Below, in pieces: positions 20,119-46,738 of a DNA stretch of 64,000 bases. The position numbers were made by a program, and so were the translations under genes. The notes below the pieces were generated by a model. It had not been told where the DNA came from. It worked only from the letters and a program-made list of their open reading frames with translations, and did not search any database. The stretch comes from an uncultured Bacteroidales bacterium (GTDB taxonomy: Bacteria; Bacteroidota; Bacteroidia; Bacteroidales; ML635J-15): contig CAZEHA010000006.1 of NCBI GenBank assembly GCA_964511665.1, positions 17,182 through 81,181 of the forward strand, in the 5' to 3' direction. How positions within the stretch are numbered: position 1 is the stretch's first letter; each line of letters opens with the position of its first letter.

Positions 20119-20121
20119 GAT

Positions 20122-28410: not shown

Positions 28411-29481
28411 TTAAAAAATCATAATTTTTTGAGTAAACAACTCTGTATCGCTGTGCATCATCACACAGTAGCAACCCTTATTATAGTTGCTGATGTCAAT
28501 TTGAATTTCGTTGCAATTGCTGTATTCCTTGCTAAACATAGTATTGCCGAAGCTATCGAGAATACGAATATGAATTGTGATATAGTTTTGTGGCGTTACC
28601 ACATATACCCAATCGTTGGCTGGATTTGGAAAAACCTGTGTTTTACTCAGGCTGTAGAAATAAGCGGTTTGATAATTGGGGTCCCATATTGCATCGGCAT
28701 ATTCGGGGTTGTCGATAAATGGATTGCGGTTGCCCTGAATGGCATACACAGTATTGTTGCGGTTTATTTCCTTGGTGCTTACGGGGTCGGAGTGATGCCA
28801 TTGCAACAACATTTCGAGAGGCTTCGGATTAATACTGCTTCGGTTAACCATACTGTTGTAGTTTGCCGGCCATGAAGCATCTTCGGTATAGTATCGTGTT
28901 GACATATAGAAATAGGTGCGGGCAAAATCGCCTTTATACTCGTCGATGGGTTCAAACACCGTAACCCCTGTCCATCCTGAATAGTTTGATGTTCCAACTT
29001 TTGAACCGTTTTGCGATGTCCACGATGATGAGCCCACCTCACCGAAAGGGTGGTTGCTGCGTCTGTTGTTTACATAGCCGTCGGTTGGGTATAGATGAAA
29101 TAAATCGCTGTAGGCAGGATACGAATCGTTGAACCATGAAGCCGGCCACGAATGTTCACGGTTGAAGCAGTCTCCTTCGTTGTTGTAGTTTCCACATTCA
29201 TCGCTTGAATTATACATATAGGTGTATGGTGGTGTGCCTCCGGGAACATCGCTGTACATATCCCATACGGTATTGTTACTTTTTTTATCGGTCGATTCAA
29301 AATGGGTGTATAAGCTACTATACGATACCGAATTGTGATCGTCGATTATGTTGTGTAGCGCAGCTCGTAATGCTAATCCCGTGAGACCCTGAGCCGAATT
29401 GTAATAGCCTGCAGGTGCTTGAGAAAAAAGATTTACATAGAAAAACAGGCTTAATGCAATGATAGAGAAAATACGAAACAT
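28411..29481 (-). CDS. secreted endonuclease I-family nuclease with T9SS type A C-terminal domain
   Basis: It has a signal peptide and the Endonuclease_1 motifs NREHSWPASWF, HLYPTDGYVNNRRSNHPFGEV and GNRNPFIDNPE. The C-terminus has VFPNPANDWVYV... Confidence 0.85.
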   Translation of the reverse strand: MFRIFSIIALSLFFYVNLFSQAPAGYYNSAQGLTGLALRAALHNIIDDHNSVSYSSLYTHFESTDKKSNNTVWDMYSDVPGGTPPYTYMYNSSDECGNYNNEGDCFNREHSWPASWFNDSYPAYSDLFHLYPTDGYVNNRRSNHPFGEVGSSSWTSQNGSKVGTSNYSGWTGVTVFEPIDEYKGDFARTYFYMSTRYYTEDASWPANYNSMVNRSSINPKPLEMLLQWHHSDPVSTKEINRNNTVYAIQGNRNPFIDNPEYADAIWDPNYQTAYFYSLSKTQVFPNPANDWVYVVTPQNYITIHIRILDSFGNTMFSKEYSNCNEIQIDISNYNKGCYCVMMHSDTELFTQKIMIF

Positions 29482-29486: not shown

Positions 29487-30524
29487 TTATTTTTTTTCTT
29501 TAATCAAATAAATAAACACCGGAAAGTGATCGCTATAACCTTCCATGTAGGTATCGCCAACATAGGTTCGTAATGGATATCCCTTGAAACGTCCTTCGGG
29601 CTGCATCAGAAAAGTTTTGTTGAAAACATGAGCCGAATAGAACAGCAGCCTCGACGATTCTTTATTCAGCAAGCTGGTTGTAATAATAAACTGGTCGAAT
29701 AAATTCCACGAGTCGCGCCAGGCCAACGACCCTACGCCTTTTTTATACAAGTCGTACATAGGGTTGAACAATTGTGTTTCGCTAATTTCATCGCGGCTGA
29801 AAGAGGCTTTTAAGGTTTTTTGTACACTGTGGTTGGTCGGGTCGTCGTTTAGGTCTCCTAAAAGCACAATTTGAGCATCGTTGTTACATTTCCTTATCGA
29901 ATCTACAATTTGTATGCTGAGTTCGGCGGCTTCTATGCGGAGCTGACGGCTGCGTTTCTCGCCTCCTCTTCGCGATGGCCAGTGCATTACAACAAAATGA
30001 ATTTCTTCGCCAAGCAAACGGCCACTAACCAACAGGTGATCGCGCGATTGAAAAGTAACTCCCCGCGAAAAATAAATCCGGTGTGTTACCGAATTGGTGG
30101 GTTCAAAGAAATCGGGACGGTATAACAATGCAACATCAACGCCTCTGAGATACCACGAATCGTAGTGCACTATTTTGTAATTATACGGTTTCATGGCAGG
30201 TGCATCGACCAAATCTTGCAGCACCATTCGGTTTTCTACTTCGCACAATCCGATTACCGCCGGAGGTTCACCTGTTTTTTCGGCACCAATCTTAACAATG
30301 GTGGTTGAAAGGCGCTCTATTTTCTTAAAGTATTTTTCGCTATTCCAGTTTTTATTGCTTTGCGGGTTATATTCTTTTTCATCAACTTCGGGTTGATTGA
30401 TGGTGTCGAAGAGGTTCTCAACATTATAAAAGGCTATGGTAGCAATGTGAAATTCCTTTTTTTCCTGCGACAATAGGGTGATACTCACCGCCAATAAACA
30501 GGCTATAAATAGTGCTCGTATCAT
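29487..30524 (-). CDS. secreted endonuclease/exonuclease/phosphatase (EEP) family protein
   Basis: ATG at 30524 (the caller's 30533 start is TTG) gives the signal peptide MIRALFIACLLAVSITLLSQ. It has FYNVENLFD, LCEVEN and the C-terminal YSDHFPV. Confidence 0.8.
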   Translation of the reverse strand: MIRALFIACLLAVSITLLSQEKKEFHIATIAFYNVENLFDTINQPEVDEKEYNPQSNKNWNSEKYFKKIERLSTTIVKIGAEKTGEPPAVIGLCEVENRMVLQDLVDAPAMKPYNYKIVHYDSWYLRGVDVALLYRPDFFEPTNSVTHRIYFSRGVTFQSRDHLLVSGRLLGEEIHFVVMHWPSRRGGEKRSRQLRIEAAELSIQIVDSIRKCNNDAQIVLLGDLNDDPTNHSVQKTLKASFSRDEISETQLFNPMYDLYKKGVGSLAWRDSWNLFDQFIITTSLLNKESSRLLFYSAHVFNKTFLMQPEGRFKGYPLRTYVGDTYMEGYSDHFPVFIYLIKEKK

Positions 30525-30594
30525 TTGCGTCAAAATAAATGTATTTCACTGCAAATATAGCAGCTTTTCTGTGAATGCTTGCGAAATTATCAGC

Positions 30595-31527
30595 CTATTC
30601 TACATTGTGCTTTTTGATATACGAAAAAATGGCTCCCTCTTTAATGGAATACCTCGAGTGAATTATATGTTTTAAATGGAGCCGTTGTATTAAATGCTGC
30701 ACAAATGCCAACGCCAGCGGCATCAGGTCAACCCTCATGGCTTCCATGCCCTCTAAGGCCAGCCGCTGTTCACGGTTGAGTGTAAACATCTTTCGGCAAA
30801 CAATGTCGAAGTCGGCTACACTTATTGTGTGCCTGTTCATATGAAACAACGATGTGTTGTTGCTACATCTGATAATGCTCGACAGGGTTTCGAATGTGCC
30901 CGATGAGCCGGCCAAAGTATCGATATTGTATAATTTCATTTCGCTGTATAGCTCCGATAACACTTTATCGATATAATCGAACACCGGTATTAAATTGTTG
31001 TTAATGAGTGGGTCTGCTAACTGAAACATGTTTAGCAAACGCGAAATGCCCAAATCGAAGCTTTTCTTCCATAATATGGTTTCGCCCTCGAATATAACAA
31101 ATTCGTTGCTGCCTCCTCCAATGTCGAGTAACAGCATGGGTTTGTCGGTGTACTCTATGGCCCTCAGCACACCACTGTGAATTAGTTGTGCTTCGTCGCT
31201 GCCGCTTAATATCTTAAACCCGATTCCGGTTTCTTTTTTTAGCAATTCCACAATGTGTGCACCATTATCAGAGCTTCTGACGCCCGATGTGGCATTGGCA
31301 ATTACAACATCGGCATGATGCAGTTCAATTAGATTTGAATATTCACTTACAATTTCGAGGCATCTTGCAACAGCATCCTGCGCAATAGTTTTGGCGTTTA
31401 CACTGTTCTTCAGCAGCATTACTGCCCGTTTTTCGAGGCATACCGTTTCTAGTCGATTGTTGTTATAATCGGCAATGAGCAAATTGCAGGTATTGGTACC
31501 CAAATCGATGGAAGCAAATCGTTGCAT
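30595..31527 (-). CDS. Ppx/GppA-family phosphatase (short, N-terminal-domain form)
   Basis: ASIDLGTNTCNLLIA and DIGGGSNEF are ASKHA-fold motifs. It starts 4 nt after the ABC permease stop. Confidence 0.85.
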   Translation of the reverse strand: MQRFASIDLGTNTCNLLIADYNNNRLETVCLEKRAVMLLKNSVNAKTIAQDAVARCLEIVSEYSNLIELHHADVVIANATSGVRSSDNGAHIVELLKKETGIGFKILSGSDEAQLIHSGVLRAIEYTDKPMLLLDIGGGSNEFVIFEGETILWKKSFDLGISRLLNMFQLADPLINNNLIPVFDYIDKVLSELYSEMKLYNIDTLAGSSGTFETLSSIIRCSNNTSLFHMNRHTISVADFDIVCRKMFTLNREQRLALEGMEAMRVDLMPLALAFVQHLIQRLHLKHIIHSRYSIKEGAIFSYIKKHNVE

Positions 31528-31531
31528 CGAG

Positions 31532-32926
31532 TTAGTTTTTATAGCGCAGCCATTTCCACAACTCTTTGTAATTCACTTTTTTACCGTACATTAATATGCC
31601 AGTGCGATATATTTTAGCAGCCATCCAAACCATAAACACAAAACTGATTACCAGCAGAGCCATCGATATGATAACATCCTGAATGGGAACTTCAAAAGGA
31701 ATGCGAACCATCATAACAATGGGAGAGGTAAATGGTATTATCGAGAACCAGTAGGCCAGGCTACCGCTTGGGTTGTTGATTGCCGACACCATAACAATAA
31801 TGCCGAGAACAAGAGGAATGGTTACCGGCAACATAAATTGTTGTGTGTCGGTTTCGTTATCAACGGCAGCCCCAATTGCAGCAAACATAGCTGCATACAG
31901 CAGGTAGCCACCCATAAAATAGAAGAGAAACATGCCGATAACCAATGGGAAATTAATAGCTTTTATCGAATTGAAAACTTCAGAGAACTGTGCAGCACCT
32001 TCGTCCACGGCCTTGTCGGCATCAATAAGTGTTCGCCCGGTGCTGTCGGTGGGTACCTGTGCCATTTCGGCAATTTTCGAAGTGTCAATCAGCACCGCCT
32101 GAGCAACAGTAACCAACCCGAATGTGAGAACTACCCAAAGCAAAAACTGGGTTAGGCCTACCAAAGCTACCCCGATTATTTTCCCCATCATCAGCTGATA
32201 GGGTTTTACCGATGAAACAATTACCTCAACTATTCTACTGGTTTTTTCTTCGATTACACCACGCATTACCATGGACCCGTACATAAACACAAACATATAA
32301 ATCAGAAATCCCGAAATGTAACCCAAAATCATCGATATTTCGGTTGATGTTTGTGTTTCTACACCATCTTCACCAAGTTTATAAGTAATCACATTAACAT
32401 TGGAGTTCACCACGCGAAGTATTTCTTGCATCGATTCGGGTGTGATGCCTAGGTCTTTCCCTTTTTCGGCCAGTTTAATGTCTTCGATGTGTTTTTCGAG
32501 GCAGTTGGCAATGTGCATTTTTAACCCGAGATTGGGTTGTTGGTAACTGAACAGCTGCACGCGCCCGGTACCCATGTTAATTACATTATGTGGTATGTAC
32601 AATAAAGCATAGTACTTTGAGTCTTTTAATTGATTTTTTGCCGAATCCATGCTCATGTTCAACATATAATCAAATTTGATGAACTCAGTATCTTTTAGTA
32701 TTCTGATGTCAATTTTACCGTCATCGCTGGTTATAGGGGCAAACAAATACGAATCGTCGATAACGGCAACATACTTCAGTTCGTCTTCTTCCATTTGAGC
32801 CAGCAGGGCAGGGGCAACCATCAGTGCTGCAAATAGCAAGGGACCTAGTATGGTCATTATGATGAACGATTTTTTCTTTACGCGGGTTACATATTCCCGT
32901 TGTATGATAAGACCTGTTTTACTCAT
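31532..32926 (-). CDS. ABC-2 type exporter permease (NatB-like)
   Basis: 464 aa with one N-terminal TM helix, a large extracytoplasmic loop, and five or six C-terminal TM helices. Confidence 0.85.
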   Translation of the reverse strand: MSKTGLIIQREYVTRVKKKSFIIMTILGPLLFAALMVAPALLAQMEEDELKYVAVIDDSYLFAPITSDDGKIDIRILKDTEFIKFDYMLNMSMDSAKNQLKDSKYYALLYIPHNVINMGTGRVQLFSYQQPNLGLKMHIANCLEKHIEDIKLAEKGKDLGITPESMQEILRVVNSNVNVITYKLGEDGVETQTSTEISMILGYISGFLIYMFVFMYGSMVMRGVIEEKTSRIVEVIVSSVKPYQLMMGKIIGVALVGLTQFLLWVVLTFGLVTVAQAVLIDTSKIAEMAQVPTDSTGRTLIDADKAVDEGAAQFSEVFNSIKAINFPLVIGMFLFYFMGGYLLYAAMFAAIGAAVDNETDTQQFMLPVTIPLVLGIIVMVSAINNPSGSLAYWFSIIPFTSPIVMMVRIPFEVPIQDVIISMALLVISFVFMVWMAAKIYRTGILMYGKKVNYKELWKWLRYKN

Positions 32927-32960
32927 TTTGTTGTATGCTTAATAATAATTAACATCTGAA

Positions 32961-33905
32961 CTAATTGATTTTTGTCTCGTTGCTTGGCCCCGACGATTGA
33001 ACGGCTTTAATAAATATGTCGTTCATGCTGGGCTTCACCATTTCGAACGATTTCATATTTCCAAATTGCAGCATGTGTTTAATCAGGTCGTTTTGGCTCA
33101 TCGATGAGTCGGTTAAACGAAGTTTTATGCTGCTAATACCGTTGTTTTCTGCAGTTTCGATAATTTCGTAGTTGGTGGCTAATGTAGCAGCCAGTTTCTG
33201 AAAATAGCCAAGATAGGTAAACTCATAAATGCCGCTTGCATATGTATCGCGAACATCGTTTATATTGCCGTCGAGGATTTTGCGCGATTTGTTGATGAGT
33301 GCTATATGGTCGCAAATTTCTTCGACCGAGGCCATATTGTGCGTCGAAAATAAAATGGTGGCCCCATCAAAGCGGAGTTTTAAAATTTCTTGCTTTAGTA
33401 AGTTGGTATTTATCGGATCGAAACCACTGAAAGGCTCGTCAAAAATCAGCAGACGGGGCTTGTGAAGTATAGTAATAATGAATTGTACCTTTTGCTGCAT
33501 CCCTTTCGATAACTCTTCAACTTTCTTGTCCCACCATTCGGTAATCTCAAATTTTTCGAACCAGTATTTCAGTTGTTTGAATGCGTCATGGCGGTTTAAC
33601 CCCTTCAATCGACTCAGGTATAGTGCCTGTTCGCCTACTTTCATCTTTTTGTACAATCCCCTTTCTTCGGGTAGATATCCGATGCTGTGAATGTGTTTGG
33701 CCGATAGTTTTTCTCCGTCAATATAAATACTTCCGCTATCGGGTGCGGTTATCTGATTCAAAATCCTGATAAAGGTGGTTTTTCCGGCACCATTAGGCCC
33801 CAAGAGCCCAAAAATACTGTTCTGTGGTACCGCGAGGTCGAGGCTGTCGAGAGCCAAATGACCCGAATACCGTTTTACAACCTGTGTGGCAGTTAAAAAA
33901 CTCAT
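32961..33905 (-). CDS. ABC transporter ATP-binding protein (NatA-like, with C-terminal DUF4162-like extension)
   Basis: Walker A GPNGAGKTT, signature LSKGMQQK, Walker B LLIFDEP. The ATG at 33905 (MSFLTATQVVKRY) is preferred over 33932. Confidence 0.9.
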   Translation of the reverse strand: MSFLTATQVVKRYSGHLALDSLDLAVPQNSIFGLLGPNGAGKTTFIRILNQITAPDSGSIYIDGEKLSAKHIHSIGYLPEERGLYKKMKVGEQALYLSRLKGLNRHDAFKQLKYWFEKFEITEWWDKKVEELSKGMQQKVQFIITILHKPRLLIFDEPFSGFDPINTNLLKQEILKLRFDGATILFSTHNMASVEEICDHIALINKSRKILDGNINDVRDTYASGIYEFTYLGYFQKLAATLATNYEIIETAENNGISSIKLRLTDSSMSQNDLIKHMLQFGNMKSFEMVKPSMNDIFIKAVQSSGPSNETKIN

Positions 33906-34151
33906 GTTTTCAATTTTTTGCGAAGATAGCAATTTTGATGTGCTTTGACCCCGGTTAACATTTCTTTTAGAAATAACTTTTTAACTGTCGAGCATATTTT
34001 ATGGCAGACCATTTTGTTATGATATATGCCGTATATATAAAAATAGCAAGAAAGTCCTATTGTAATTGTCTTAATATTAGGCAATTGACGTTTATTGCTG
34101 ATTTGTGAATAGAATTTAACATTTTTTTTCGCATATTATCTAATAATGTAT

Positions 34152-34159
34152 TAAATTTG
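34152..34159 (+). promoter_or_regulatory. candidate -7 box (TAAATTTG) upstream of the giant gene
   Basis: It matches TAnnTTTG 55 nt upstream of the ATG at 34215. There is no clear -33 TTTG. Confidence 0.3.
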
Positions 34160-34214
34160 GAGCGAGGAAAATGTGTTCTGAAGAATTTTTTAAGTAACTA
34201 TAAATTAACAGCTT

Positions 34215-37200
34215 ATGAGAAAACTATGCTTAAGTTGTGTTCTTGTTGTGTTATTTTCTGTTGTTTCGTTCGTTACGAATGCGCAATGGGCTGTAACTGC
34301 AATTGACACTGAATTTGTTATCGATTTCGATAACACGGTTAACGGGGTAAACAATGGTGTGTATGCAGGCACCGGTTTTTTAAATGATCCCGGCGATGGG
34401 CAGCTTGATGCTGATGCCTGGGAAATAACAGGCATGAGCGAAGGCGATAAGCTATTTGGTGCCGAGGCATCAACAGGCGATTTCGCACGAGGCACTTCCC
34501 AGTCGCTCACTTCGGGTGGTTTGTATTCCTACGAAGTAGAAACCGGAAACTTTGCTTTTGGTATGCTGCCGGCCGGTAGCGATATCACGCCCGGGTACAT
34601 TGCAATTAAAATGCAAAATAATACGGGCGAAGCAATTACAGGTGTTGAGTTCTCTTATGACATCTGGGTGCTCAACTGGGCAGGCCGCTCTCAAAGTTTC
34701 AACGGCGAGGTGTCGTTCGATGGAATCAACTGGATACCTATCGATGACTTTTTATTCACTACACCCGAAGTTGCCGATGCTACACCGGCATGGGTAAAAA
34801 CTTCGTTTACAAGCGGAGGTGAAATGGCCCTTGCCGCCGGCGATTACTTGTATTTCAGATGGTACACCGACGATGTTGGCGGTTCAGGTTCTCGCGACCG
34901 TATTGCTATCGATAATATTAAAATAAAACTTACCACAGACGAAGAACCTACCGGAGAAAATTGTTTATTAGCACTCGACTATGGGTTTGTTAACGACCCT
35001 GCTGTAGAAGGAAGTATCGTTGCCAGTCAGGCAGTTTGGTACAAAGTGAATCTGCCTGCTCCAATGTATAATGTGGTGTTTTCTCTTTGTGGCTCTTCGT
35101 TCGATACCCAACTGGAAATATGGGTTAATTGCGAAGATGCAACCTACACATATTACAACGACGATTTTTGCGGAACAGCATCTCAGATAACGGTTCCCGA
35201 TCTTGCTGCGGGCGATTACTTTGTTAAAGTGCTCGGTTACGGAACTGCCTTCGGCGATTATGTATTAAATATTACAGGAGCTACCTGTGCATCTCCGGTG
35301 GCGCTTTCTGCTACAAATGTAACAACTGAAGGAGCCGATTTGTCGTGGTCGCCGGTAAGCACCGAAACCATGTGGGTGGTTGAAGTGGGTCTTCCCGGAT
35401 TTATACCCGGAACAGGAGCCGCTGTTGTTACCATCGAAGACATTCCCAATCCGTTTGTAAGTGTTACCGGCTTGAATCCGGCCACAGCTTATCAATACGC
35501 GGTTAAAGCCGTGTGTGGGGTTGACAACGAAAGTGGATGGTCAAATAATTTTGCTTTCACCACTGCGTGCAACGTAGTATCCGATTTTCCGTTTGCTATG
35601 AATTTCGACGATGCCACTTTCCCACCTGTATGCTGGACTAATGTTAGAACAGCCGGAACCGGAACCCCGGGAACATGGAATCGTTCTACTACCGGAACCA
35701 ATCCTACCTGTTCACCCAAAAGTGGTGCCGGAATGGCTAGGTACAATTGTTATAATCTTAGCGGTGGTACCATGGGTATTTTGGTGACACCCCAGCTCGA
35801 TTTCCCCACCGACAACTATGTAGTTGAGTTTTGGATGTTCCGCGATAATGGATATACCACTTATTCAAACGAAAAGGTAAATGTATATTATAATACCGAG
35901 AACAATCTCACTGGAGCCGAGTTGATTGGTACAGTAAGCAGGTATTATGGTTTTGCACCTGTTGAAGCTGTAGCCAACCAATGGTATCAATATAGCTTCG
36001 ATTTGCCGGGTGGTAAATCGGGACTTGGATACATTATATTAGAGGCAGTAAGTCAATATGGCAACAATATCTTTGTTGATGAAATGAATATCAGAGCCAA
36101 ATCGACCGAGACCGAAATTATTACCTACAGCTTGCCCGGACAAACCGGAGCGCCTGTATTTGGCGATCATACCATCGATGTGGAAGTAGCTATTGGAACC
36201 GATGTAACTGCCTTGGTTGCCGGCTTTACTCTGTCAGATGGTGCAAGCGCATCTGTTTTGGGCGTAGCTCAGGAAAGTGGAGTAACTCCTAACGATTTCA
36301 CCAATCCGGTTACCTATGTGGTTACAGCCGAAGACGGTGTTACTACAGCCGATTGGGTGGTAAGCGTAACCGAAGCCACATCGCAAAGCAGCGAAAACGA
36401 TATTATTACGTTCAGCTTCCCGCAACAAACCGGTGTTGCCACTATCGATGCCGAAAATCATACTGTGGCTATCGAAGTTCAGTGGACAGCGAATATTGCT
36501 GACCTTACACCCACAATTACCGTTTCGCCATTGGCAAGTATCTATCCTGAAAGTGGAGTTGCCCGCGACTTTACCAACCCTGTGGAATACACAGTTACTG
36601 CCGAAGATGCCAGCGAGCAAATTTGGACAGTATCGGTAAGTCAGGAGGCTATTCCTGCCGGTGTCGATTGTGCCAATGCACAAGTTGTTACGCTACCGCT
36701 CGATGCTCCCTATGCCGATTTGGCACAGACCAACTGCGGCATGCTCAACAGCTACAGCAATTCATGCATGGGTTTCTACGATGGCGGCGAAGACTTTATT
36801 TACCGCCTCGATGTTACCAGCGCCGTACAGGTAACCATAACCATGGATCCCAAAACTACAACCTATTCAGGTTTAGGTTTGCTTGATGGATGCCCCGACA
36901 CAGGTGCATGTATTCAGGTTGCCACGGGTTCAGGTGCAGCACCAAGGGTAATAACCAGAATCTTACAGCCCGGTACCTATTATCTCATGGTTGACACTTG
37001 GGCAGCCCCCAACTGCATACCGGTATTCGACCTGACTATTACAGCAGTTAGCTGTTTGCCCCCTGCAGCTTTAACAGTGAGCAATATTACACAAGGTACA
37101 GCCGACGTAAGCTGGACAGCTCAACTGGGCGAAACTGTTTGGAACTTGCTGTATGGTGAAACCGGATTCGATCCGCTCAACGAAGGTACATTGGTTGAAG

Positions 37201-40200
37201 GCGCAAGCAATCCATACACCATTACCGGTCTTGATGAAGCTACAACTTATCAGGTATATGTGCAAACCGATTGTGGCGGTAGTGTAACTGCATGGACAGG
37301 TCCACAAAGCTTTACCACACTTGCTTCATGTCCTGCGCCAACGGGTCTTACGGCAACCAATGTTTTATACAATCAAGCTAATTTGCAATGGAATGCCAAT
37401 ACTGCTACCGAATGGAACATAGAATGGGGTTTGTTTGGATTTGCCCAAGGAACCGGAACTCTTCTCGAAAATGTTACCGATAATCCGTATCTGCTCGAAG
37501 GTTTAGAGGCTTTGACCCAATACAGCTATTATGTACAGGCTGTGTGTGGTGCCGAACAAAGTGTATGGGCCGGACCTTATAGTTTTACCACTACATGTGC
37601 TCCTGTAACCGCATTCCCGTTTGTTCAAAGCTTCGACGATGCCACATTCGCACCAGCTTGCTGGACAAATGTTAGAACAGCAGGAACCGGTACGCCCGGA
37701 ACATGGAATCGTTCTACTACCGGAACCAATCCTACCTGTTCACCCAAAAGTGGTGCCGGAATGGCTAGGTACAATTGTTATAATCTTAGCGGTGGTACCA
37801 TGGGTATTTTGGTGACACCCCAGCTCGATTTCCCCACCGACAACTATGTAGTTGAGTTTTGGATGTTCCGCGATAATGGATATACCACTTATTCAAACGA
37901 AAAGGTAAATGTATATTATAATACCGAGAACAATCTCACTGGAGCCGAGTTGATTGGTACAGTAAGCAGGTATTATGGTTTTGCACCTGTTGAAGCTGTA
38001 GCCAACCAATGGTATCAATATAGCTTCGATTTGCCGGGTGGTAAATCGGGACTTGGATACATTATATTAGAGGCAGTAAGTCAATATGGCAACAATATCT
38101 TTGTTGATGAAATGAATATCAGAGCCAAATCGACCGAGACCGAAATTATTACCTACAGCTTGCCCGGACAAACCGGAGCGCCTGTATTTGGCGATCATAC
38201 CATCGATGTGGAAGTAGCTATTGGAACCGATGTAACTGCCTTGGTTGCCGGCTTTACTCTGTCAGATGGTGCAAGCGCATCTGTTTTGGGCGTAGCTCAG
38301 GAAAGTGGAGTAACTCCTAACGATTTCACCAATCCGGTTACCTATGTGGTTACAGCCGAAGACGGTGTTACTACAGCCGATTGGGTGGTAAGCGTAACCG
38401 AAGCCACATCGCAAAGCAGCGAAAACGATATTATTACGTTCAGCTTCCCGCAACAAACCGGTGTTGCCACTATCGATGCCGAAAATCATACTGTGGCTAT
38501 CGAAGTTCAGTGGACAGCGAATATTGCTGACCTTACACCCACAATTACCGTTTCGCCATTGGCAAGTATCTATCCTGAAAGTGGAGTTGCCCGCGACTTT
38601 ACCAACCCTGTGGAATACACAGTTACTGCCGAAGATGCCAGCGAGCAAATTTGGACAGTATCGGTAAGTCAGGAGGCTATTCCTGCCGGTGTCGATTGTG
38701 CCAATGCACAAGTTGTTACGCTACCGCTCGATGCTCCCTATGCCGATTTGGCACAGACCAACTGCGGCATGCTCAACAGCTACAGCAATTCATGCATGGG
38801 TTTCTACGATGGCGGCGAAGACTTTATTTACCGCCTCGATGTTACCAGCGCCGTACAGGTAACCATAACCATGGATCCCAAAACTACAACCTATTCAGGT
38901 TTAGGTTTGCTTGATGGATGCCCCGACACAGGTGCATGTATTCAGGTTGCCACGGGTTCAGGTGCAGCACCAAGGGTAATAACCAGAATCTTACAGCCCG
39001 GTACCTATTATCTCATGGTTGACACTTGGGCAGCCCCCAACTGCATACCGGTATTCGACCTGACTATTACAGCAGTTAGCTGTTTGCCCCCTGCAGCTTT
39101 AACAGTGAGCAATATTACACAAGGTACAGCCGACGTAAGCTGGACAGCTCAACTGGGCGAAACTGTTTGGAACTTGCTGTATGGTGAAACCGGATTCGAT
39201 CCGCTCAACGAAGGTACATTGGTTGAAGGCGCAAGCAATCCATACACCATTACCGGTCTTGATGAAGCTACAACTTATCAGGTATATGTGCAAACCGATT
39301 GTGGCGGTAGTGTAACTGCATGGACAGGTCCACAAAGCTTTACCACGCTTGCCAACTGCCCTGCTCCCGATGCTTTAGGTGCAGAAAACATCACTTCTTC
39401 ACAGGCCGATCTCATCTGGACAGCGACTGGCGGCACAAGTCTTTGGAATATTGAATGGGGCTTGTCAGGCTTTACTCAGGGAGAAGGCACCTTGGTTTTG
39501 GGAATTGATGCAATTCCTTACAATCTTGCCGGTCTCGACCCGCTAACTACATACAGCTTCTATATACAGTCCGATTGCAGTGGAACACTTAGCGCATGGG
39601 CCGGTCCCTATAGTTTTACCACTGCCTGTGGCGTTGAAACAACATTCCCCATAGTTGAAACATTCGAATCAACAACATTCCCACCAACATGCTGGACTCG
39701 CATAGCAGGCTCAGGCAACTGGACCCGTAGTGCATCAGCCGGAGGCTATGGAAACAGCACTGCTTCAGCTTATGTTAATTTCTATGGTATTTCGGGCACC
39801 GACCCCATGCATCTCATCAGTCTTGAATTTGATGCCAGTGGTATTGTTAACCCGCAACTATTGTTCGATTATGCCTATGCAACTTATGGAGCTGAATATG
39901 TTGATAAACTCGAAATTTTCTATTCTACCGATGGTGGAACAACATTCGAGTTGCTCGAAACCATGCTGGGTGGTGTATCGGGCACACTAAATACAGGTGG
40001 TGTTGTTTCAGGTTCGTTTATTCCCAATGCTTCGCAGTGGGAAACAAAGATGTTGTTCCTGCCTGCAGGTACCAATTTCGTAAGATTTACGGCTACCAGT
40101 GCCTGGGGTAACAACCTGTACATCGATAATGTTACAGTTCAGCAAGGTCCCACCTGTGTTGAACCTACTGCACTTGTTACTTCGGGAATTACCAGTTCGG

Positions 40201-43200
40201 CAGCAACAGTAAGTTGGGCAGAGTCGATATCTAATCCTTCTGAAGGTTACGATTTGTATTTGGCAACGGTAGCCGACGCACCCGACGGAACAACTGTTCC
40301 AACGGTTTCGGTACCTGCCGAAGAACTTTCGTACGATTTTACAGGTCTAGCCGAAGAAACACTCTACTATGTATGGATACGCACCAATTGTGGTGAAGGC
40401 GATTTAAGCGACTGGGCAGGCCCTGTAACGTTTACCACGCTTGCCGGTTGTGCTGTTCCCACCGATCTAACTGCAACCAACATTTTGGCTACCTCGGCCG
40501 ATTTAGGCTGGAGTGCCGTAGGTGGCACCACGCTTTGGAATATCGAAATCGGATTGCCCGGATTTACTCCAGATAACGAAGAATTTGTTCAGAGCATTGT
40601 GGGAACCGAAGACAATCCGACGCTTGTTACCGGACTTTCACCGCAAACCGCCTATGTATTCTATGTACAAGCCGATTGTGGTAGCGACCTAAGTGCATGG
40701 GCAGGTCCGTTTGCCTTTACTACACCTTGTGAAGCTGTAACTGCTTTCCCGTTCACCGAAAGTTTCGATGTTGAGCCTTTTGCTCCGGCATGCTGGACTA
40801 ATGCTCAGGTTTCTGGTCCGGGAGCAGGATTGTGGAATCGTGCAACAACAGGTGGTAGTCCTGCAGCAAGTCCACACAGTGGTGCTGCTATGGCACGATT
40901 CAATGCGTATAATTATGGTACAGGTACCAGTGGTATTCTTGTAACCCCCGGTCTCGATTTTCCGGCCGATAACTATCAGGTTCTCTTCTGGATGTACCGA
41001 GATAACGGCTACCTAGGTAACCTCGACAGAGTGAATGTATATTACAACACTGCCAACAATCTTACCGGCGCTACTTTATTGGGTACTATTCACCGTTCGT
41101 GGACACAATCACCGGCGGCTCCGGTAGCCAATCAGTGGTACGAGTACACATTCGATATGCCCGAAGGTTCTTCCGGCGTTGGTTATGTGGTTTTTGAGGG
41201 AGTTAGCGCCTATGGTAACAATATCTTTGTTGACGATGTTACTGTACAAGTGATACCTACCTGTCCTGCCCCGATGGCTCTTACAGCCTCAGGTATTACT
41301 CACGAGGAAGCCTTACTGGCATGGACAGAGAATGGTTCTGCCACCTCATGGAATATCGAGTACGGTATTTCAGGCTTTACACTTGGTGAAGGAACCATGA
41401 TGGAAGATGTCGAAAATCCATATCTCTTGCAAGGACTTCAGGAACTAACAACCTATAGCTATTATGTTCAGTCTGATTGTGCCGACGACGATCAAAGTAC
41501 ATGGGTTGGTCCTTATAGCTTTACAACTTTGCCAAGTTGTCCGGAACCAACAGGTTTGGGTGTTGAAAATATTATCACTAACCAGGCCGATTTAGCTTGG
41601 GTTGCTGCAGGCCTTACCGATTTGTTCAATATTGAATGGGGCCTTAGTGGTTTCGTTCAGGGCGAAGGTACATTGGTTGAAGATGTAAATGCCGAAACCT
41701 ATCAGCTTACCGGTCTTGAGCCTAATACCAGTTACTCATTCTATGTTCAGGCCAATTGTGGCAGTGGCGACTATAGCGAGTGGGCAGGTCCTTATACTTT
41801 CACTACCACTTGTGCAATTATTTCGGAGTACCCTTATTTCGAAGGATTTAATAGTGCTACATTCCCCAACTGCTGGAGCAGACTGAACTTAGACGGTGAT
41901 ACATATCAGTGGTCGCCAAATACAAGTTATGTGTACGAAGGAAGTCACTCGGTTGCCATTCACTGGAATTCATCAGGAAACAACGACTGGTTGATTTCGC
42001 CACAATTCGAAATTACATCGGATGCATTAATACTCGACTTCTTTGCACGCAGTACTTCTGCTTCCTTTTTGGAATCGTTCAATGTGTTAGTATCCACAAC
42101 AGGAACCAATCCGGCCGACTTTACCATTGTTCTCGAAAACGTGGTTGATCATCCTAATGCATGGTTGAATCATGCTTATACGCTTGCCGATTACGGAATC
42201 AATCAGGGAGATCAGATTTATGTAGCCATACAGTGTGTGTCGACCGACGAATTGTATCTGGCTGTTGATGCCTTCAGTATTCGTGAACCCAATACTGAGA
42301 GTGACATAATTACCTATAGCATTCCTCAGCAAATAGAGCCTGCCGGCTTCGATACCGAAAACCATATTATCGATGTTACCGTTGGTTTTGGTACAGACCT
42401 GTCTACGCTAGTACCTGTATTTACTCTCTCAGAAGGCGCTACTGCCTCGGTTGACGCTGTAGTTCAGCAAAGTGGGGTAAGCGTTGTTGACTTTACTGGC
42501 GGCAGTGCAGTATATAATGTTGTTGCCGAAGATGGTGTCAGTTCAACCGACTGGACAGTGAATATTACAGTAGCTCCGATAAATACCGAAGCCAATATTC
42601 TTACTTATGGTTTCGATGAGCAAACCGAACCGGCCAACATTAATAGCGAATATCAGATGATTTATGTAAATATCAATTGGTGGTCAGATATAACCAACTT
42701 GATTGCCGACTTTACATTATCTTATGGTGCATCTGCTGAAATTGAAGGAGTGGAACAGGTAAGTGGAGTAACTGCCAACAACTTCGACCATACCGTTTAC
42801 TACGACGTTACGGCCGAAGATGGTAGCACCACACAAAGCTGGGAGGTAAATGTAACTCAGGATGCACCACCGCTGAATATTACCTGCGATGGCGCTGTTG
42901 CATATACCATCAACGATCCCGACCAAACCGGTTTCATGCCGGCACAGCATCAGTATTACTTCCTGGTGACCCTGCCTACCGACTACACCAACGTACGAAT
43001 GATGACTTGTGGGTCAGATTTCGATACCAAGCTGGCATACTTCGCTTCGTGCGATGATATTCCCGACTTGAGTTCTTGCCCTGCCAACCCGGCCGGAAAC
43101 CTCGGATATGTTGACGATGGTGGTTGCGGTTCGCAATCATACGGTGGAAGCACATTGGCTTCGTATCTTAATATCGGCAACCTGAGTGCAGGTACCTATG

Positions 43201-44108
43201 TGGCTGTGGTATATGGATATGGTGTTACCTCAAACGGAAACTTCCAGTTCCGAGTGCTTGGCGATGCGGTTCTAGTAACCGACTTGGCTTTAAATATAGG
43301 GTCGGGTTATACTTGCCCTGTTGAAGAAGCTCACCCAATGTTCGAAGTTTCTAATGTTGGTGAAACCACTGTTGTGGCAGGTGAAACCATTAACTTCGTT
43401 CTCGAAATAGAAGAAGTTGAAGTTATCAACGAAGACTTTGTTCTTGCTGAAGATTTAACACCCGGACAATCGGTGTCGTTTGAAACAGTTGCTTCTATCG
43501 ACCTTACCGTAGTAGGAACAATAGAATGGAGGGCATCGATTAACTACACTGCCGACGAAAATGGCGAAAACAATGTTGTTGAAGGTTTTGTTACTGTATT
43601 CGAGCAAGCTATCGAGTTTGTTGATGCCGAAAACGATACCATTACTGTGGAATCGTGGCCATACACAATCACGGCTAACGCAGTGGTTAATCCAACAATT
43701 CCTTTCGATACCGAGTATCTGTGGGAAGGTGGCGAAACTACCAACACACTCGAGGTAAACGAAGAAGGTTGGTATATACTCACCGTAATCACAGCCGACT
43801 GCGAATATCAGGATTCGGTGTATATTGTTTACTACAACAGAATACCGCAGTTTGATGTGAACGGGTTTAGCTTGTATCCCAATCCGACTGCTGGATTGTT
43901 TGTAATTGATGTAACACTTCCTGAACAGTCGAATGCTGTGATTACCATTACCGACGCTTTGGGAAGAACAATCGAAGTTATGAATGTAAGCAATACTGAT
44001 ACCTATCGCCGTCAGGTTGATATGTCGGGATATGCCGAAGGAGTTTACAACATAACTTTGAACTACGCAGAACAAAGTATTACGAAGAGGGTTACCTTGC
44101 GTAAATAA
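34215..44108 (+). CDS. giant (3,297 aa) modular cell-surface protein with T9SS type A C-terminal sorting domain
   Basis: A single uninterrupted ORF with signal peptide MRKLCLSCVLVVLFSVVSFVTNA. It contains multiple FN3-like modules, choice-of-anchor-J/MAM-like modules (CWTN...W.R....SP.SG...A....), about 95-aa Ig-like repeats and PPC-like domains. The C-terminus LYPNPTAGLFVIDV... (approximately 43864-44105) is followed by a strong terminator. Confidence 0.9.
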   Translation: MRKLCLSCVLVVLFSVVSFVTNAQWAVTAIDTEFVIDFDNTVNGVNNGVYAGTGFLNDPGDGQLDADAWEITGMSEGDKLFGAEASTGDFARGTSQSLTSGGLYSYEVETGNFAFGMLPAGSDITPGYIAIKMQNNTGEAITGVEFSYDIWVLNWAGRSQSFNGEVSFDGINWIPIDDFLFTTPEVADATPAWVKTSFTSGGEMALAAGDYLYFRWYTDDVGGSGSRDRIAIDNIKIKLTTDEEPTGENCLLALDYGFVNDPAVEGSIVASQAVWYKVNLPAPMYNVVFSLCGSSFDTQLEIWVNCEDATYTYYNDDFCGTASQITVPDLAAGDYFVKVLGYGTAFGDYVLNITGATCASPVALSATNVTTEGADLSWSPVSTETMWVVEVGLPGFIPGTGAAVVTIEDIPNPFVSVTGLNPATAYQYAVKAVCGVDNESGWSNNFAFTTACNVVSDFPFAMNFDDATFPPVCWTNVRTAGTGTPGTWNRSTTGTNPTCSPKSGAGMARYNCYNLSGGTMGILVTPQLDFPTDNYVVEFWMFRDNGYTTYSNEKVNVYYNTENNLTGAELIGTVSRYYGFAPVEAVANQWYQYSFDLPGGKSGLGYIILEAVSQYGNNIFVDEMNIRAKSTETEIITYSLPGQTGAPVFGDHTIDVEVAIGTDVTALVAGFTLSDGASASVLGVAQESGVTPNDFTNPVTYVVTAEDGVTTADWVVSVTEATSQSSENDIITFSFPQQTGVATIDAENHTVAIEVQWTANIADLTPTITVSPLASIYPESGVARDFTNPVEYTVTAEDASEQIWTVSVSQEAIPAGVDCANAQVVTLPLDAPYADLAQTNCGMLNSYSNSCMGFYDGGEDFIYRLDVTSAVQVTITMDPKTTTYSGLGLLDGCPDTGACIQVATGSGAAPRVITRILQPGTYYLMVDTWAAPNCIPVFDLTITAVSCLPPAALTVSNITQGTADVSWTAQLGETVWNLLYGETGFDPLNEGTLVEGASNPYTITGLDEATTYQVYVQTDCGGSVTAWTGPQSFTTLASCPAPTGLTATNVLYNQANLQWNANTATEWNIEWGLFGFAQGTGTLLENVTDNPYLLEGLEALTQYSYYVQAVCGAEQSVWAGPYSFTTTCAPVTAFPFVQSFDDATFAPACWTNVRTAGTGTPGTWNRSTTGTNPTCSPKSGAGMARYNCYNLSGGTMGILVTPQLDFPTDNYVVEFWMFRDNGYTTYSNEKVNVYYNTENNLTGAELIGTVSRYYGFAPVEAVANQWYQYSFDLPGGKSGLGYIILEAVSQYGNNIFVDEMNIRAKSTETEIITYSLPGQTGAPVFGDHTIDVEVAIGTDVTALVAGFTLSDGASASVLGVAQESGVTPNDFTNPVTYVVTAEDGVTTADWVVSVTEATSQSSENDIITFSFPQQTGVATIDAENHTVAIEVQWTANIADLTPTITVSPLASIYPESGVARDFTNPVEYTVTAEDASEQIWTVSVSQEAIPAGVDCANAQVVTLPLDAPYADLAQTNCGMLNSYSNSCMGFYDGGEDFIYRLDVTSAVQVTITMDPKTTTYSGLGLLDGCPDTGACIQVATGSGAAPRVITRILQPGTYYLMVDTWAAPNCIPVFDLTITAVSCLPPAALTVSNITQGTADVSWTAQLGETVWNLLYGETGFDPLNEGTLVEGASNPYTITGLDEATTYQVYVQTDCGGSVTAWTGPQSFTTLANCPAPDALGAENITSSQADLIWTATGGTSLWNIEWGLSGFTQGEGTLVLGIDAIPYNLAGLDPLTTYSFYIQSDCSGTLSAWAGPYSFTTACGVETTFPIVETFESTTFPPTCWTRIAGSGNWTRSASAGGYGNSTASAYVNFYGISGTDPMHLISLEFDASGIVNPQLLFDYAYATYGAEYVDKLEIFYSTDGGTTFELLETMLGGVSGTLNTGGVVSGSFIPNASQWETKMLFLPAGTNFVRFTATSAWGNNLYIDNVTVQQGPTCVEPTALVTSGITSSAATVSWAESISNPSEGYDLYLATVADAPDGTTVPTVSVPAEELSYDFTGLAEETLYYVWIRTNCGEGDLSDWAGPVTFTTLAGCAVPTDLTATNILATSADLGWSAVGGTTLWNIEIGLPGFTPDNEEFVQSIVGTEDNPTLVTGLSPQTAYVFYVQADCGSDLSAWAGPFAFTTPCEAVTAFPFTESFDVEPFAPACWTNAQVSGPGAGLWNRATTGGSPAASPHSGAAMARFNAYNYGTGTSGILVTPGLDFPADNYQVLFWMYRDNGYLGNLDRVNVYYNTANNLTGATLLGTIHRSWTQSPAAPVANQWYEYTFDMPEGSSGVGYVVFEGVSAYGNNIFVDDVTVQVIPTCPAPMALTASGITHEEALLAWTENGSATSWNIEYGISGFTLGEGTMMEDVENPYLLQGLQELTTYSYYVQSDCADDDQSTWVGPYSFTTLPSCPEPTGLGVENIITNQADLAWVAAGLTDLFNIEWGLSGFVQGEGTLVEDVNAETYQLTGLEPNTSYSFYVQANCGSGDYSEWAGPYTFTTTCAIISEYPYFEGFNSATFPNCWSRLNLDGDTYQWSPNTSYVYEGSHSVAIHWNSSGNNDWLISPQFEITSDALILDFFARSTSASFLESFNVLVSTTGTNPADFTIVLENVVDHPNAWLNHAYTLADYGINQGDQIYVAIQCVSTDELYLAVDAFSIREPNTESDIITYSIPQQIEPAGFDTENHIIDVTVGFGTDLSTLVPVFTLSEGATASVDAVVQQSGVSVVDFTGGSAVYNVVAEDGVSSTDWTVNITVAPINTEANILTYGFDEQTEPANINSEYQMIYVNINWWSDITNLIADFTLSYGASAEIEGVEQVSGVTANNFDHTVYYDVTAEDGSTTQSWEVNVTQDAPPLNITCDGAVAYTINDPDQTGFMPAQHQYYFLVTLPTDYTNVRMMTCGSDFDTKLAYFASCDDIPDLSSCPANPAGNLGYVDDGGCGSQSYGGSTLASYLNIGNLSAGTYVAVVYGYGVTSNGNFQFRVLGDAVLVTDLALNIGSGYTCPVEEAHPMFEVSNVGETTVVAGETINFVLEIEEVEVINEDFVLAEDLTPGQSVSFETVASIDLTVVGTIEWRASINYTADENGENNVVEGFVTVFEQAIEFVDAENDTITVESWPYTITANAVVNPTIPFDTEYLWEGGETTNTLEVNEEGWYILTVITADCEYQDSVYIVYYNRIPQFDVNGFSLYPNPTAGLFVIDVTLPEQSNAVITITDALGRTIEVMNVSNTDTYRRQVDMSGYAEGVYNITLNYAEQSITKRVTLRK
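35670..37318 (+). repeat. copy 1 of a perfect 1,649-bp intragenic direct repeat
   Basis: It matches 37698-39346 at an offset of 2,028 bp. Left-edge mismatches are at 35639, 35654, 35663, 35666 and 35669. The first right-edge mismatch is 37319 (a) against 39347 (g). Interior lines were spot-checked, and shadow-ORF translations in other frames are identical. Confidence 0.9.
37698..39346 (+). repeat. copy 2 of the perfect 1,649-bp intragenic direct repeat
   Basis: See copy 1. The shadow ORFs 38262-38711, 38461-38667, 38651-38914 and 39099-39335 reproduce 36234-36683, 36433-36639, 36623-36886 and 37071-37307 exactly. Confidence 0.9.
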
Positions 44109-44208: not shown

Positions 44209-45294
44209 ATGGAAACTTTGGCCTGGATAGGATTTACACAGTCGTTTTTCGGAGTGTTGCTTGTAATGGCAAAACGCAATAATCATATTTCCGATAAAAT
44301 ACTTTCGGTATGGTTGGCCATTAGTGGTATTACTTTTATGGAAATTGCCATCACACAAGCCAATAGTTTTTCGATAGTGCCGGTAAATGCCTTAATAACG
44401 AATGCATTGCTTTTTATATACAGCATTTCGCTTACACGCGAAAACTTTCGACTGAAAACCAAACACTGGGTACATGCTCTTTTGCCTACTGTTTTTGTCT
44501 TGGTAATTATATGGACGGGCGCAGAACTGAGAATGGAACATTACTTTTTTGAAGATGTGTTTCTGCCATACCGAATTGTAATGGCTGTAACACTGATAGC
44601 GTCGTTCTTGTTTTATTGGTTTTTAAGCGTTAGAACCATTCACCGATATCGACAGAAACTGAAAAATGAATTCTCATCTATCGAGGCGAATATAAAACTG
44701 GGATGGTTGCTTTTTGTGCTTATATTTTACATTGTTTACAATTTGATTTTAATTGCCGCGGGTTTTATTGAAGTGTTTTCGGGCATAGAAACCAATTACT
44801 TGTATTTTGTGCTTTCGTTTAACTTGTTTTTGGTTTTTTCGTTTACTTTCTATGGTCTCAGGCAACAGGTGTTGATAGTGCCTAATGAACACCAGCACGA
44901 AACCGGACATTATGCGGCATCGCGATTGGCCGACGAAGAAAAAATGGCCATAAAAACACGATTATTATCATATTTCGAAAAACATGAACCTTACCTCGAC
45001 GGCAATTTGACTGTGTCGGATCTGGCTGAAAAATTGGGAATACAGCGCCACAAGCTCACCGAAGTATTGAACACTGAGTTGAATATGAATTTCTATCGCT
45101 TTGTGAATACCTACCGTGTCGAAAAAGTTAAAAAGTTACTGAGCGATGCTGATAACAATAATTTCTCGATTGAAGCATTGGGCTACGATTGTGGATTCAA
45201 CAGCAAAACAACTTTTTTTACGGTTTTCAAAAACATGACTGGGTGCACGCCTGCTCAGTACCGTAATCGATATGCGAAGAAAATATTTGATTGA
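44209..45294 (+). CDS. AraC-family transcriptional regulator with polytopic membrane N-terminal domain
   Basis: About six hydrophobic helices occupy the first 230 aa or so. The C-terminal HTH_AraC has LTVSDLAEKLGIQRHKLTEVL and ALGYDCGFNSKTTFFTVFKNMTGCTPAQYR. Confidence 0.85.
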   Translation: METLAWIGFTQSFFGVLLVMAKRNNHISDKILSVWLAISGITFMEIAITQANSFSIVPVNALITNALLFIYSISLTRENFRLKTKHWVHALLPTVFVLVIIWTGAELRMEHYFFEDVFLPYRIVMAVTLIASFLFYWFLSVRTIHRYRQKLKNEFSSIEANIKLGWLLFVLIFYIVYNLILIAAGFIEVFSGIETNYLYFVLSFNLFLVFSFTFYGLRQQVLIVPNEHQHETGHYAASRLADEEKMAIKTRLLSYFEKHEPYLDGNLTVSDLAEKLGIQRHKLTEVLNTELNMNFYRFVNTYRVEKVKKLLSDADNNNFSIEALGYDCGFNSKTTFFTVFKNMTGCTPAQYRNRYAKKIFD

Positions 45295-45448
45295 GTTCAA
45301 GTTCCGATTGCGAAATCGGTACTTACAATATGCTGTTAATCAGGCAAATTGTGATTATTAAAGTCATATAGGTTCGATTAATAATATGTGGTGCTACTTG
45401 CATTATTATAATCGACTTGCCTAATCTACGCTGTTTATTTGCAACAAA

Positions 45449-46738
45449 ATGTTGAGTATGCGTGCTATAGTTGTTTTATTCTTTTGTGTTGTGTTGAGCA
45501 TTGCGAATGTGCAATCGCAGGTAATACATAACCATATCAATTTGAATGGATTCACAAAGGCATTTTCAGTGGCCGGTGCAAACGACTATCCCCTTTCTAA
45601 CCTTATATCGGAAACCGGAATTTTATTAGGAGCGAAACCTGGCACTAACACCATGTTTGCTGTTGATGCCCGAATGAGATTCGGATACTCGTATAACGAG
45701 TTAATACATGTATTTAGTTTACGAGAAGCGTATGCCGGCTACACATCAACCCATTTCGATATGAGCATGGGGCGTAAGATTCTGGAATGGAGCCGACTCG
45801 ATGCTTATAGTATTGTGAATCAGGTAACGCCATACGACTATTTTTATTTGTCGCCCGATAACGACGATAGCCGCATGCCTCAGTACGTAGTGCATACTTC
45901 GCTGCGCTTGGGTGGCTTTTTAAATTGGCAGATTGTTGCCATTCCTTTTTTTACACCATCGGTTTACCGCTTCGATTTGTTCAGCATGGGCGAAAACGTT
46001 TCTTTTGTTGATGCTGAATTACCCGAGCGCAGTTTCTACAACGCTGCAATGGCCAGCCGAATGGGTTTCGACTTTAGCTCGATGTCGTTGGCTATGTCGT
46101 TTTATAGGGGATATGCGTGCAACTACGGTTTTAATTTGCATACGATCGATTTTTTTTCGGAGCCGGTTGCTGTGAACCTGATTCCCGTCTATCACTATCA
46201 TACTACTGCCGGCCTCGATATCGAAATACCTGTGAAGCAATTTATAGTTAAGGCAGAGGCAGCATATTATCATGTAGCCGATACCATTGTCAATATGGCT
46301 TTACCACATAGTCGTTGGGCATTCGGGGTGGCAATTGAACGCAGGTTGTGGGGCGTAAACACAGTGCTGCAATACAATTCGGTGTACACACCCGATTTTG
46401 TGCCACTTCCCGAACCTGCACACAATCTCGAAGCTATGGTAAACCAAATGGTCGACTTCAACCGTATGATATTCGGCCAGCAACAGCAATACACCCACAC
46501 AGTAAGCCTATTGCTGAATCGTTCGCTGTTTTATGAAACCTTACAGTTGAACGGTATGTTTACCTATAATGTAAGCACCGGTGAGTTTTTGATACGACCG
46601 TCGCTAGAGTATAAATGTAACGATAATCTGAGTGTTTCGATGGGTGGTTTGTATATGCACGGAGACGATAACACAGTGTTCTCGCACTCTTCGAAAGTTC
46701 TTAACGGCGCTTTTTTACAAATGAAAGTTGTTTTCTGA
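45449..46738 (+). CDS. putative outer-membrane beta-barrel protein (family not recognised)
   Basis: It has the signal peptide MLSMRAIVVLFFCVVLSIANVQS, Tyr/Gly-rich alternating segments, and a terminal ..LQMKVVF. Its stop overlaps the MMPL start (TGATG). Confidence 0.6.
   Translation: MLSMRAIVVLFFCVVLSIANVQSQVIHNHINLNGFTKAFSVAGANDYPLSNLISETGILLGAKPGTNTMFAVDARMRFGYSYNELIHVFSLREAYAGYTSTHFDMSMGRKILEWSRLDAYSIVNQVTPYDYFYLSPDNDDSRMPQYVVHTSLRLGGFLNWQIVAIPFFTPSVYRFDLFSMGENVSFVDAELPERSFYNAAMASRMGFDFSSMSLAMSFYRGYACNYGFNLHTIDFFSEPVAVNLIPVYHYHTTAGLDIEIPVKQFIVKAEAAYYHVADTIVNMALPHSRWAFGVAIERRLWGVNTVLQYNSVYTPDFVPLPEPAHNLEAMVNQMVDFNRMIFGQQQQYTHTVSLLLNRSLFYETLQLNGMFTYNVSTGEFLIRPSLEYKCNDNLSVSMGGLYMHGDDNTVFSHSSKVLNGAFLQMKVVF

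Follow-up and report, generated by a model that had tools for sequence, protein, structure and literature searches.

A perfect 1649-bp in-frame direct repeat in a giant gene for a putative surface protein of an uncultured Bacteroidales bacterium, and its probable origin by gene conversion

This study examined a window of 64,000 nucleotides from an uncultured Bacteroidales bacterium (GenBank assembly GCA_964511665.1, contig CAZEHA010000006.1, positions 17,182 to 81,181 of the forward strand; window positions are used throughout) and, within it, a giant gene whose product is predicted to be a multidomain protein secreted to the cell surface as type IX secretion system (T9SS) cargo. The gene, at 34215-44108 on the forward strand, forms a single open reading frame (ORF) of 3297 codons according to the ORF list and its translation, and it contains a segmental, in-frame direct repeat that is real and present in at least two copies. 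As assembled, the two copies are identical over 1649 bp. Recent gene conversion between pre-existing paralogous supermodules of the gene is considered the best explanation of this tract and a reasonably probable one; both conversion as the mechanism and the recency of the event are what we infer from the pattern of identity and divergence described below.

Direct comparison of 35670-37318 with 37698-39346 returned 0 mismatches over 1649 bp at an offset of 2028 bp, or 3 x 676, confirming the preliminary description of a perfect repeat with an in-frame period. Copy 1 (35670-37318, forward strand) opens on the first base of codon 486 and spans codons 486-1034 plus 2 nt; it holds a choice-of-anchor-J domain (CAJ1) from that domain's codon 34 onward, two immunoglobulin-like (Ig) DUF5018 domains, a PPC domain and the FN3 domain F2, where F1 to F9 denote the FN3 domains in their order along the gene. 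Copy 2 (37698-39346, forward strand) is an exact match to copy 1. No other direct or inverted repeat of at least 60 nt occurs in the 64-kb window, and a chance match is therefore of no concern; TRF, which has a period limit of 500 nt against the repeat period of 2028 nt, reported no repeat. Two identical antisense ORFs of 149 aa each (36234-36683 and 38262-38711, reverse strand) are a product of lying in the repeat copies, and no evidence was found for their status as genes.

The two edges of the tract differ in character. The left flank of copy 1 (35520-35669, forward strand), comprising the end of F1 and the first 33 codons of CAJ1, is homologous to 37548-37697, and over these 150 nt identity climbs toward the repeat in successive 30-nt steps (17/30, 17/30, 20/30, 24/30 and 26/30). 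Mismatches stand at 35639, 35654, 35663, 35666 and 35669 on the left and at 37319 on the right, exactly as first listed. The accompanying statement that the flanking differences are mostly synonymous describes the last ~60 nt on the left, where synonymous changes account for 4/4 altered codons in 35640-35669 and 3/5 in 35610-35639; it does not describe the right side, where identity drops instantly to the level of paralogues (62% nt). The tract starts 33 codons into CAJ1 and CAJ2 and ends on the last residues of F2 and F4 (...SFTTLA). Of the proposal that both edges lie inside older paralogous modules, the graded left edge within the CAJ domain bears out one half, whereas the right edge is sharp and coincides with an FN3 domain boundary (F2/F3). 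Similarly, the 379-bp spacer between the copies (37319-37697, forward strand), previously described as a diverged FN3 module, does contain such a module, F3 (codons 1036-1128), together with the first 33 codons of CAJ2.

Considered over the full period, the two 676-aa units are 92.6% identical in amino acids and 93.5% in nucleotides, with 549 aa identical. The FN3 domains trailing the two copies, F3 and F5, share just 62% nt and 56% aa identity and differ by an indel of 3 bp. F3 is at least as similar to F8 (66% nt), and F5 to F9 (64% nt), and the best FN3-FN3 match for either of them in the giant gene reaches 66-67%. F1 and F3 are 59% identical in nucleotides, and F1 is not a recent paralogue of F3. 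The tract (1649 bp) is thus shorter than the period (2028 bp) and is bordered by anciently diverged homologous flanks, so that a plain duplication does not account for it; since none of the gene's FN3 domains resembles F3 or F5 closely enough to have replaced it recently, the units appear to be old paralogues and the tract a later homogenisation. A single unequal crossover alters copy number and cannot homogenise units in place, leaving conversion or a double exchange. The earlier suggestion of recent conversion or unequal crossover is therefore retained for conversion and dropped for a single unequal crossover. With zero differences in 1649 bp, the upper bound on divergence between the copies is ~0.18%, compared with 4-6% between strains, suggesting that the last homogenisation is far younger than the strain split.

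In the mechanism proposed here, the gene would already have contained a pair of old, paralogous supermodules of the order CAJ, Ig, Ig, PPC, FN3, with one more FN3 domain after each, and RecA-type homologous recombination, either within the gene or between sister chromosomes, would have copied one supermodule over the other. The right end of the tract would mark the FN3 domain boundary at which usable homology stops, and the gradual loss of identity on the left, within the CAJ domain, could reflect overlapping earlier conversion tracts with differing end points. A perfect direct repeat of 1649 bp far exceeds the length that RecA needs. Unequal exchange between sister chromosomes would thus be expected at a measurable rate, and exchange anywhere in the tract would yield the same two products, of 2621 or 3973 aa (-/+676 codons), with domains intact; the arithmetic behind the original claim that recombination between the copies shifts exactly 676 codons is correct.

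Support for the existence of the repeat comes from independent assemblies, in which all short-read contigs entering the giant gene end within it. A Logan k=31 contig (L013, from SRR10872584) matches the window at 100% identity and stops at 35699, 30 bases (k-1) beyond the last base separating the two left flanks. Its right-hand partner was predicted before look-up to start at 39317 and to encode a 1596-aa product of 39318-44105. This exact 1596-aa product was found on a 33.5-kb contig from the same run (L029), which starts at 39317 as predicted, 30 nt ahead of the first copy-distinguishing base, and is 100% identical to the window across the 14.8 kb fetched. In an assembly built with a different program, both outer edges thus appear, to the base, as branch points, showing that two left and two right contexts of the repeat are present in the reads. 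The order F1, repeat, F3 is confirmed by a megahit contig (L012, from ERZ27252301), which covers 30027 to 37615 and so crosses copy 1 and enters F3. Exact break points of contigs in independent k-mer assemblies can, as here, validate the edges of a repeat.

Recombination among the modules of this gene was observed in a related strain. This relative (Logan SRR25909814/816/817) is 94-96% identical to the window strain and carries an orthologue of the giant gene. In two runs its 5' contigs (L016 and L018) reach window-equivalent 35652 and end there, immediately to the left of the repeat. A 3' contig of the relative, L023 (SRR25909814_15124), matches the repeat at 35699-35780 over its nt 1-82 (81/82, vs 50/82 to CAJ4) and matches CAJ4 over its nt 83-200 (113/118, vs 65/118 to the repeat). 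CAJ4 (40731-41234, forward strand; NCBIfam) is the nearest paralogue of the repeat's CAJ domain at 60% aa identity, and in the window genome the corresponding part of CAJ4 is just ~60% like the repeat. The joint falls at window-equivalent 35780 on the repeat side and 40938 on the CAJ4 side, with offsets (5157 and 3129 bp) that are each divisible by three. L023 is therefore a clean in-frame joint between the repeat and CAJ4, and paralogous modules of the giant gene do recombine. The contigs fit two readings of the joint: a patch of conversion in a gene of full length, or a scar left by deletion. Contigs from two samples (L022:1-140 and L023) begin at different joint points, 65 nt apart, which hints at heterogeneity within the population.

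The left flank of CAJ1 in the relative is likewise a mosaic, composed of the window's two flanks and CAJ4-like bases. Sequence of the shared tract is limited in the relative to ~30 nt at the end of L016 and the 82 nt of L023, and it includes substitutions absent from both window copies. An interpretation of the relative's contig end as F3, implying another module order, was rejected, the sequence being orthologous to F1 at 84%. At window 35354-35627, F1 is ~21% divergent between the two strains, against 3-7% for the remaining 5' portion of the gene. Similar hypervariable blocks occur in the 3' part of the gene, at 42600-42900 and 43200-43500. Outside the giant gene, where the background divergence is 0.3-5%, patches at 22976-23400, 25800-26400 and 30600-30900 reach 13-30% per 300 nt.

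Several observations weigh against a perfect, recently converted tract that is liable to length change. Contig L012 shows 0 differences from the window over 30027-35737, 35810-36759 and 36795-37615, and its differences fall in two patches on the forward strand: 19 in 72 nt, mostly synonymous, at 35738-35809 (window allele GGCTAGGTACAATTG; L012 allele GGCACGTTACAACTG) and 8 in 35 nt at 36760-36794. These patches are 23-26% divergent and lie within the repeat, with 5.7 kb of flank identical, and the first begins just 68 nt from F1-specific bases. The true copies may accordingly differ at the patches, or the patches may be ordinary between-strain imports rather than the outcome of within-gene exchange. 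Furthermore, the perfect identity rests on one assembly, represented by an NCBI contig of 90,418 nt, and the junction from F3 to the repeat (37616-37727) is seen in the window assembly only. The assembly graph is a simple loop with the spacer as its loop edge; short reads therefore support at least two copies and cannot fix their number. The preliminary warning of assembly error thus holds for exact identity and for copy number, while it does not extend to the existence of the repeat, the edges of which are present in an independent assembly.

Divergence between the window strain and its relative also counts on this side, as it is patchy everywhere (0.3 to 30% per 300 nt), which suggests that diverged tracts are frequently imported by homologous recombination in the population. 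Finally, no length variants were found, and the predicted single-copy product of 2621 aa was absent from the protein collection in an exact-match look-up, a search of little power. Exact look-ups of partial products, among them a product of 39207-44105 predicted for k=141, were negative too, and those made in the protein collection carry no information because partial products are not indexed there. Protein searches yielded nothing closer than domain-level relatives for the 676-aa unit (<=57% identity, all <1200 aa) and no close orthologue for the 357 N-terminal, non-repetitive residues; scans of genome and metagenome contigs, from which the source genome is absent, recovered distant relatives only.

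Among the alternatives, the one that survives best is that the identity is a consensus artefact, in which at least two true copies, ~98-99% alike, were collapsed by bubble popping or multi-mapped polishing to one graph edge that was walked twice, possibly with a wrong copy number as well. It draws on L012, which comes from the same strain background and has 27 differences in two in-repeat patches linked to the F1 side, on the fact that assemblers settle a simple loop (one entry, one exit and F3 as the loop edge) by rule, and on the breaking of all other assemblies within the giant gene. The patches could, however, come from a co-occurring variant, patchy divergence being common in the population. 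With both patches taken as real, identity would still cover 1622/1649 bases, with unbroken stretches of 950 and 524 bp, and the biology, namely recent conversion and a template on which unequal exchange can act, would be the same. We view such an artefact as possible but doubtful. A search of the window and of all fetched loci turned up no donor for the two L012 patches. Mutagenesis in the manner of a diversity-generating retroelement was rejected as their source, the differences hitting all four bases and only 4/27 falling at window adenines; no reverse transcriptase was seen near the giant gene.

A second alternative extends gene conversion into a selected variation system, in which CAJ and other modules would serve as cassettes and frequent conversion would generate mosaic binding domains and length variants. 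The relative's chimeric joint between repeat and CAJ4, at which contigs from different samples start at different points, the mosaic left flank of the relative's CAJ1 and the paralogue-level divergence of the L012 patches are all in keeping with it. These amount to three events, however, all from metagenome contigs; patchy divergence is not peculiar to the giant gene, no donor for the L012 patches turned up in the window and no dedicated recombinase or invertase adjoins the gene. This explanation is consequently judged improbable, and it would be a long step to regard the gene as a self-contained variation locus in which five CAJ domains, nine FN3 domains and three Ig-Ig-PPC blocks often exchange segments. 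If this were true, the population would obtain mosaic binding domains together with length variants of +/-676 codons, a means of diversifying the cell surface that might, for instance, help non-pathogenic Bacteroidales of the environment to withstand phage or grazers where digester communities are dense.

The two remaining alternatives are weakest. A false duplication, in which a single-copy genome was misassembled with a second copy, is suggested by the standing of long perfect repeats as classic misassembly sites, and it is very unlikely given that the independent contig L012 shows the repeat to the left of F3 and that neither edge was missing from the independent data, both being exact k-1 break points at k=31 where a single-copy genome would branch nowhere. 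A fresh 2028-bp tandem duplication by one unequal crossover, free of older paralogy, would suit the adjacent copies and the whole-codon period and can nearly be discarded, since it would have left the whole period identical whereas 379 bp of each 2028 differ, F3 and F5 show 62% nt identity with an indel, and the gene offers no near-identical FN3 donor (best match 66-67%).

The repeat is set within the coding sequence of a long multidomain protein, the module order of which was derived from separate scans of protein pieces and from the location of FN3 end motifs. Pfam matches on the giant protein comprised fn3 in at least 7 stretches, DUF5018 and DUF5018-rel (4 in total), PPC (2), Cleaved_Adhesin (1) and a C-terminal Por_Secre_tail, and NCBIfam added choice-of-anchor-J (choice_anch_J) five times along with TIGR04183. 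From 5' to 3', the order is an N-terminal region, F1, CAJ1-Ig-Ig-PPC-F2, F3, CAJ2-Ig-Ig-PPC-F4, F5, CAJ3, F6 and F7, followed by CAJ4, F8, F9, CAJ5-Ig-Ig-PPC, a C-terminal region and a T9SS type A sorting domain. The signal peptide and N-terminal region occupy aa 1-357 in this module map; a candidate Sec-type signal peptide, judged by eye from the translation, reads MRKLCLSCVLVVLFSVVSFVTNA, with Gln as the next residue. F1, which precedes copy 1, covers 35286-35570 (aa 358-452; Pfam fn3 at aa 360-445), and CAJ1 covers aa 453-632 (NCBIfam choice_anch_J). The Pfam matches of copy 1 place its two DUF5018 Ig-like domains at 36111-36650 (aa 633-812) and its PPC domain at 36651-37040 (aa 813-942); in the module map F2 lies at 37041-37319 (aa 943-1035), F3 at aa 1036-1128 and F5, which trails copy 2, at 39347-39629 (aa 1712-1805), all on the forward strand.

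The T9SS type A sorting domain (43872-44093, forward strand, aa 3220-3293; PF18962 and TIGR04183) scored E=1.7e-10 with Pfam, or 4.2e-12 when the C-terminal piece was scanned alone, and E=3.8e-9 with NCBIfam, all past the curated cut-offs. It is on the strength of this domain set, including the C-terminal sorting domain, that the protein is predicted to be T9SS cargo. A second gene for a large putative T9SS cargo protein lies at 11784-15635 on the forward strand; the 1283-aa product carries SprB repeats and a type B sorting domain (CHU_C), and the G+C of the gene, 0.45, is raised, as in the giant gene, relative to a neighbourhood of ~0.41. Five genes upstream of the giant gene, a protein with Endonuclease_1 and Por_Secre_tail matches (28411-29481, reverse strand) is probably a nuclease secreted by the T9SS.

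The whole giant protein occurs once in the protein collection, from the NCBI contig of 90,418 nt, and had no exact match in the contig index. Genes in its neighbourhood recur as exact copies in several of the ENA megahit assemblies ERZ27252295-308, in Logan SRR10872584 and in JGI 3300033172, the last of which derives from an anaerobic digester in Wageningen (Table 1, PMC10159854). The host, an uncultured Bacteroidales, probably comes from an anaerobic digester. Directly downstream, a block at 44209-50219 (forward strand) encodes an AraC-type regulator, with Bacteroidales metagenome-assembled genomes (MAGs) as its nearest named relatives, a 426-aa protein without a Pfam family, an MMPL/RND-like transporter, a DUF2141 protein and a DUF1329/TP_0789-like protein. 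The giant T9SS gene and this block are syntenic in strain-level and genus-level relatives, and the block may be functionally linked to the giant gene. The genus-level loci (L025 and L026) are orthologous to the giant gene in the C-terminal CAJ5-Ig-Ig-PPC block only, and no long near-identical internal repeats were found in the assembled parts of their syntenic genes. On the JGI contig (L025:1-7431), a single ORF of at least 2476 aa makes up the syntenic giant gene. In the NCBI MAG GCA_035369565.1 (DAOSMI010000046.1; L026:1-6133) it is split into ORFs of 882 aa and 1158 aa, 10 nt apart, which reflects either a frameshift or stop in the MAG or a true split. Elsewhere in the window are an rnf-type cluster at 16198-21295 (forward strand) with RnfC at 17102-18436, a tRNA-Pro(CGG) at 4837-4910 (reverse strand) and rsmG (gidB) and rpmH homologues at about 23.9-24.9 kb; no GC-skew switch was found in the window.

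Combined, these results describe a repeat that is real but ordinary, in that recombination in the repeats of surface proteins is a known route to length change. Long identical repeats in surface-protein genes are recognised both as a route to rapid length and antigenic change and as a blind spot of short-read metagenomics; long reads are needed before the copy number and exact sequence of the giant gene in the public MAG can be relied on. Most known cases of the pattern come from pathogens (HagA, SasG, Rib); this one adds an uncultured Bacteroidales, probably of anaerobic-digester origin, and its multidomain unit is unusually large.

At the level of mechanism, the concerted evolution of paralogous repeats by RecA-dependent gene conversion is general in bacteria. 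The giant gene resembles it in that paralogues are identical while their flanks are anciently diverged, in that identity decays at one edge, and in that a relative of the window strain carries mosaic joints.

The closest parallel within the order is HagA of Porphyromonas gingivalis, a 7.9-kb gene product of 2628 aa with 2-4 contiguous ~1.3-kb repeats, the number of which differs by strain (PMC13390158, citing Han 1996 and Kozarov 1998). Both cases involve a Bacteroidales host, a very large T9SS-type surface protein and in-frame direct repeats of >1 kb that encode several adhesin-type domains, and in both the adhesin modules are common to paralogues and prone to recombination, with CAJ5 of the giant protein matching Pfam Cleaved_Adhesin. 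In contrast to the contiguous repeats of HagA, the two copies here are split by a non-identical 379-bp spacer, and variation in number is known for HagA only. The repeat unit is also different, being CAJ-DUF5018-DUF5018-PPC-FN3 rather than the gingipain-type K/HA unit of cleaved-adhesin domains found in HagA, Kgp and RgpA: the repeated CAJ1 matches NCBIfam choice_anch_J only and no Pfam family, and PF07675 matches only the non-repeated CAJ5. A PDB sequence search with the unit retrieved chains of DUF4960/glycoside-hydrolase-associated Ig and FN3 domains and no gingipain adhesin or HagA structure.

The second parallel is with the Periscope proteins (SasG, Rib, Sgo_0707, CdrA and Esp), in which repeats that are near-identical at the DNA level undergo within-gene recombination and are gained or lost in frame (Whelan et al. 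2021, PMC8201768). The screen used to define these proteins sought tandem repeats of >50 residues with >=80% identity (PMC8201768), and the 676-aa units of the giant protein, at 92.6% aa identity, pass it with two units only. Periscope stalks consist of many tandem copies of one small domain, form rods and vary in copy number by strain (PMC8201768), whereas the unit here combines five to six different domains (CAJ, two DUF5018, PPC, FN3 and the spacer FN3), and neither a single domain type nor a rod-like stalk projecting a distal functional domain is evident. By analogy, the giant gene would appear to work in the manner of the HagA and Periscope systems while belonging to neither family.

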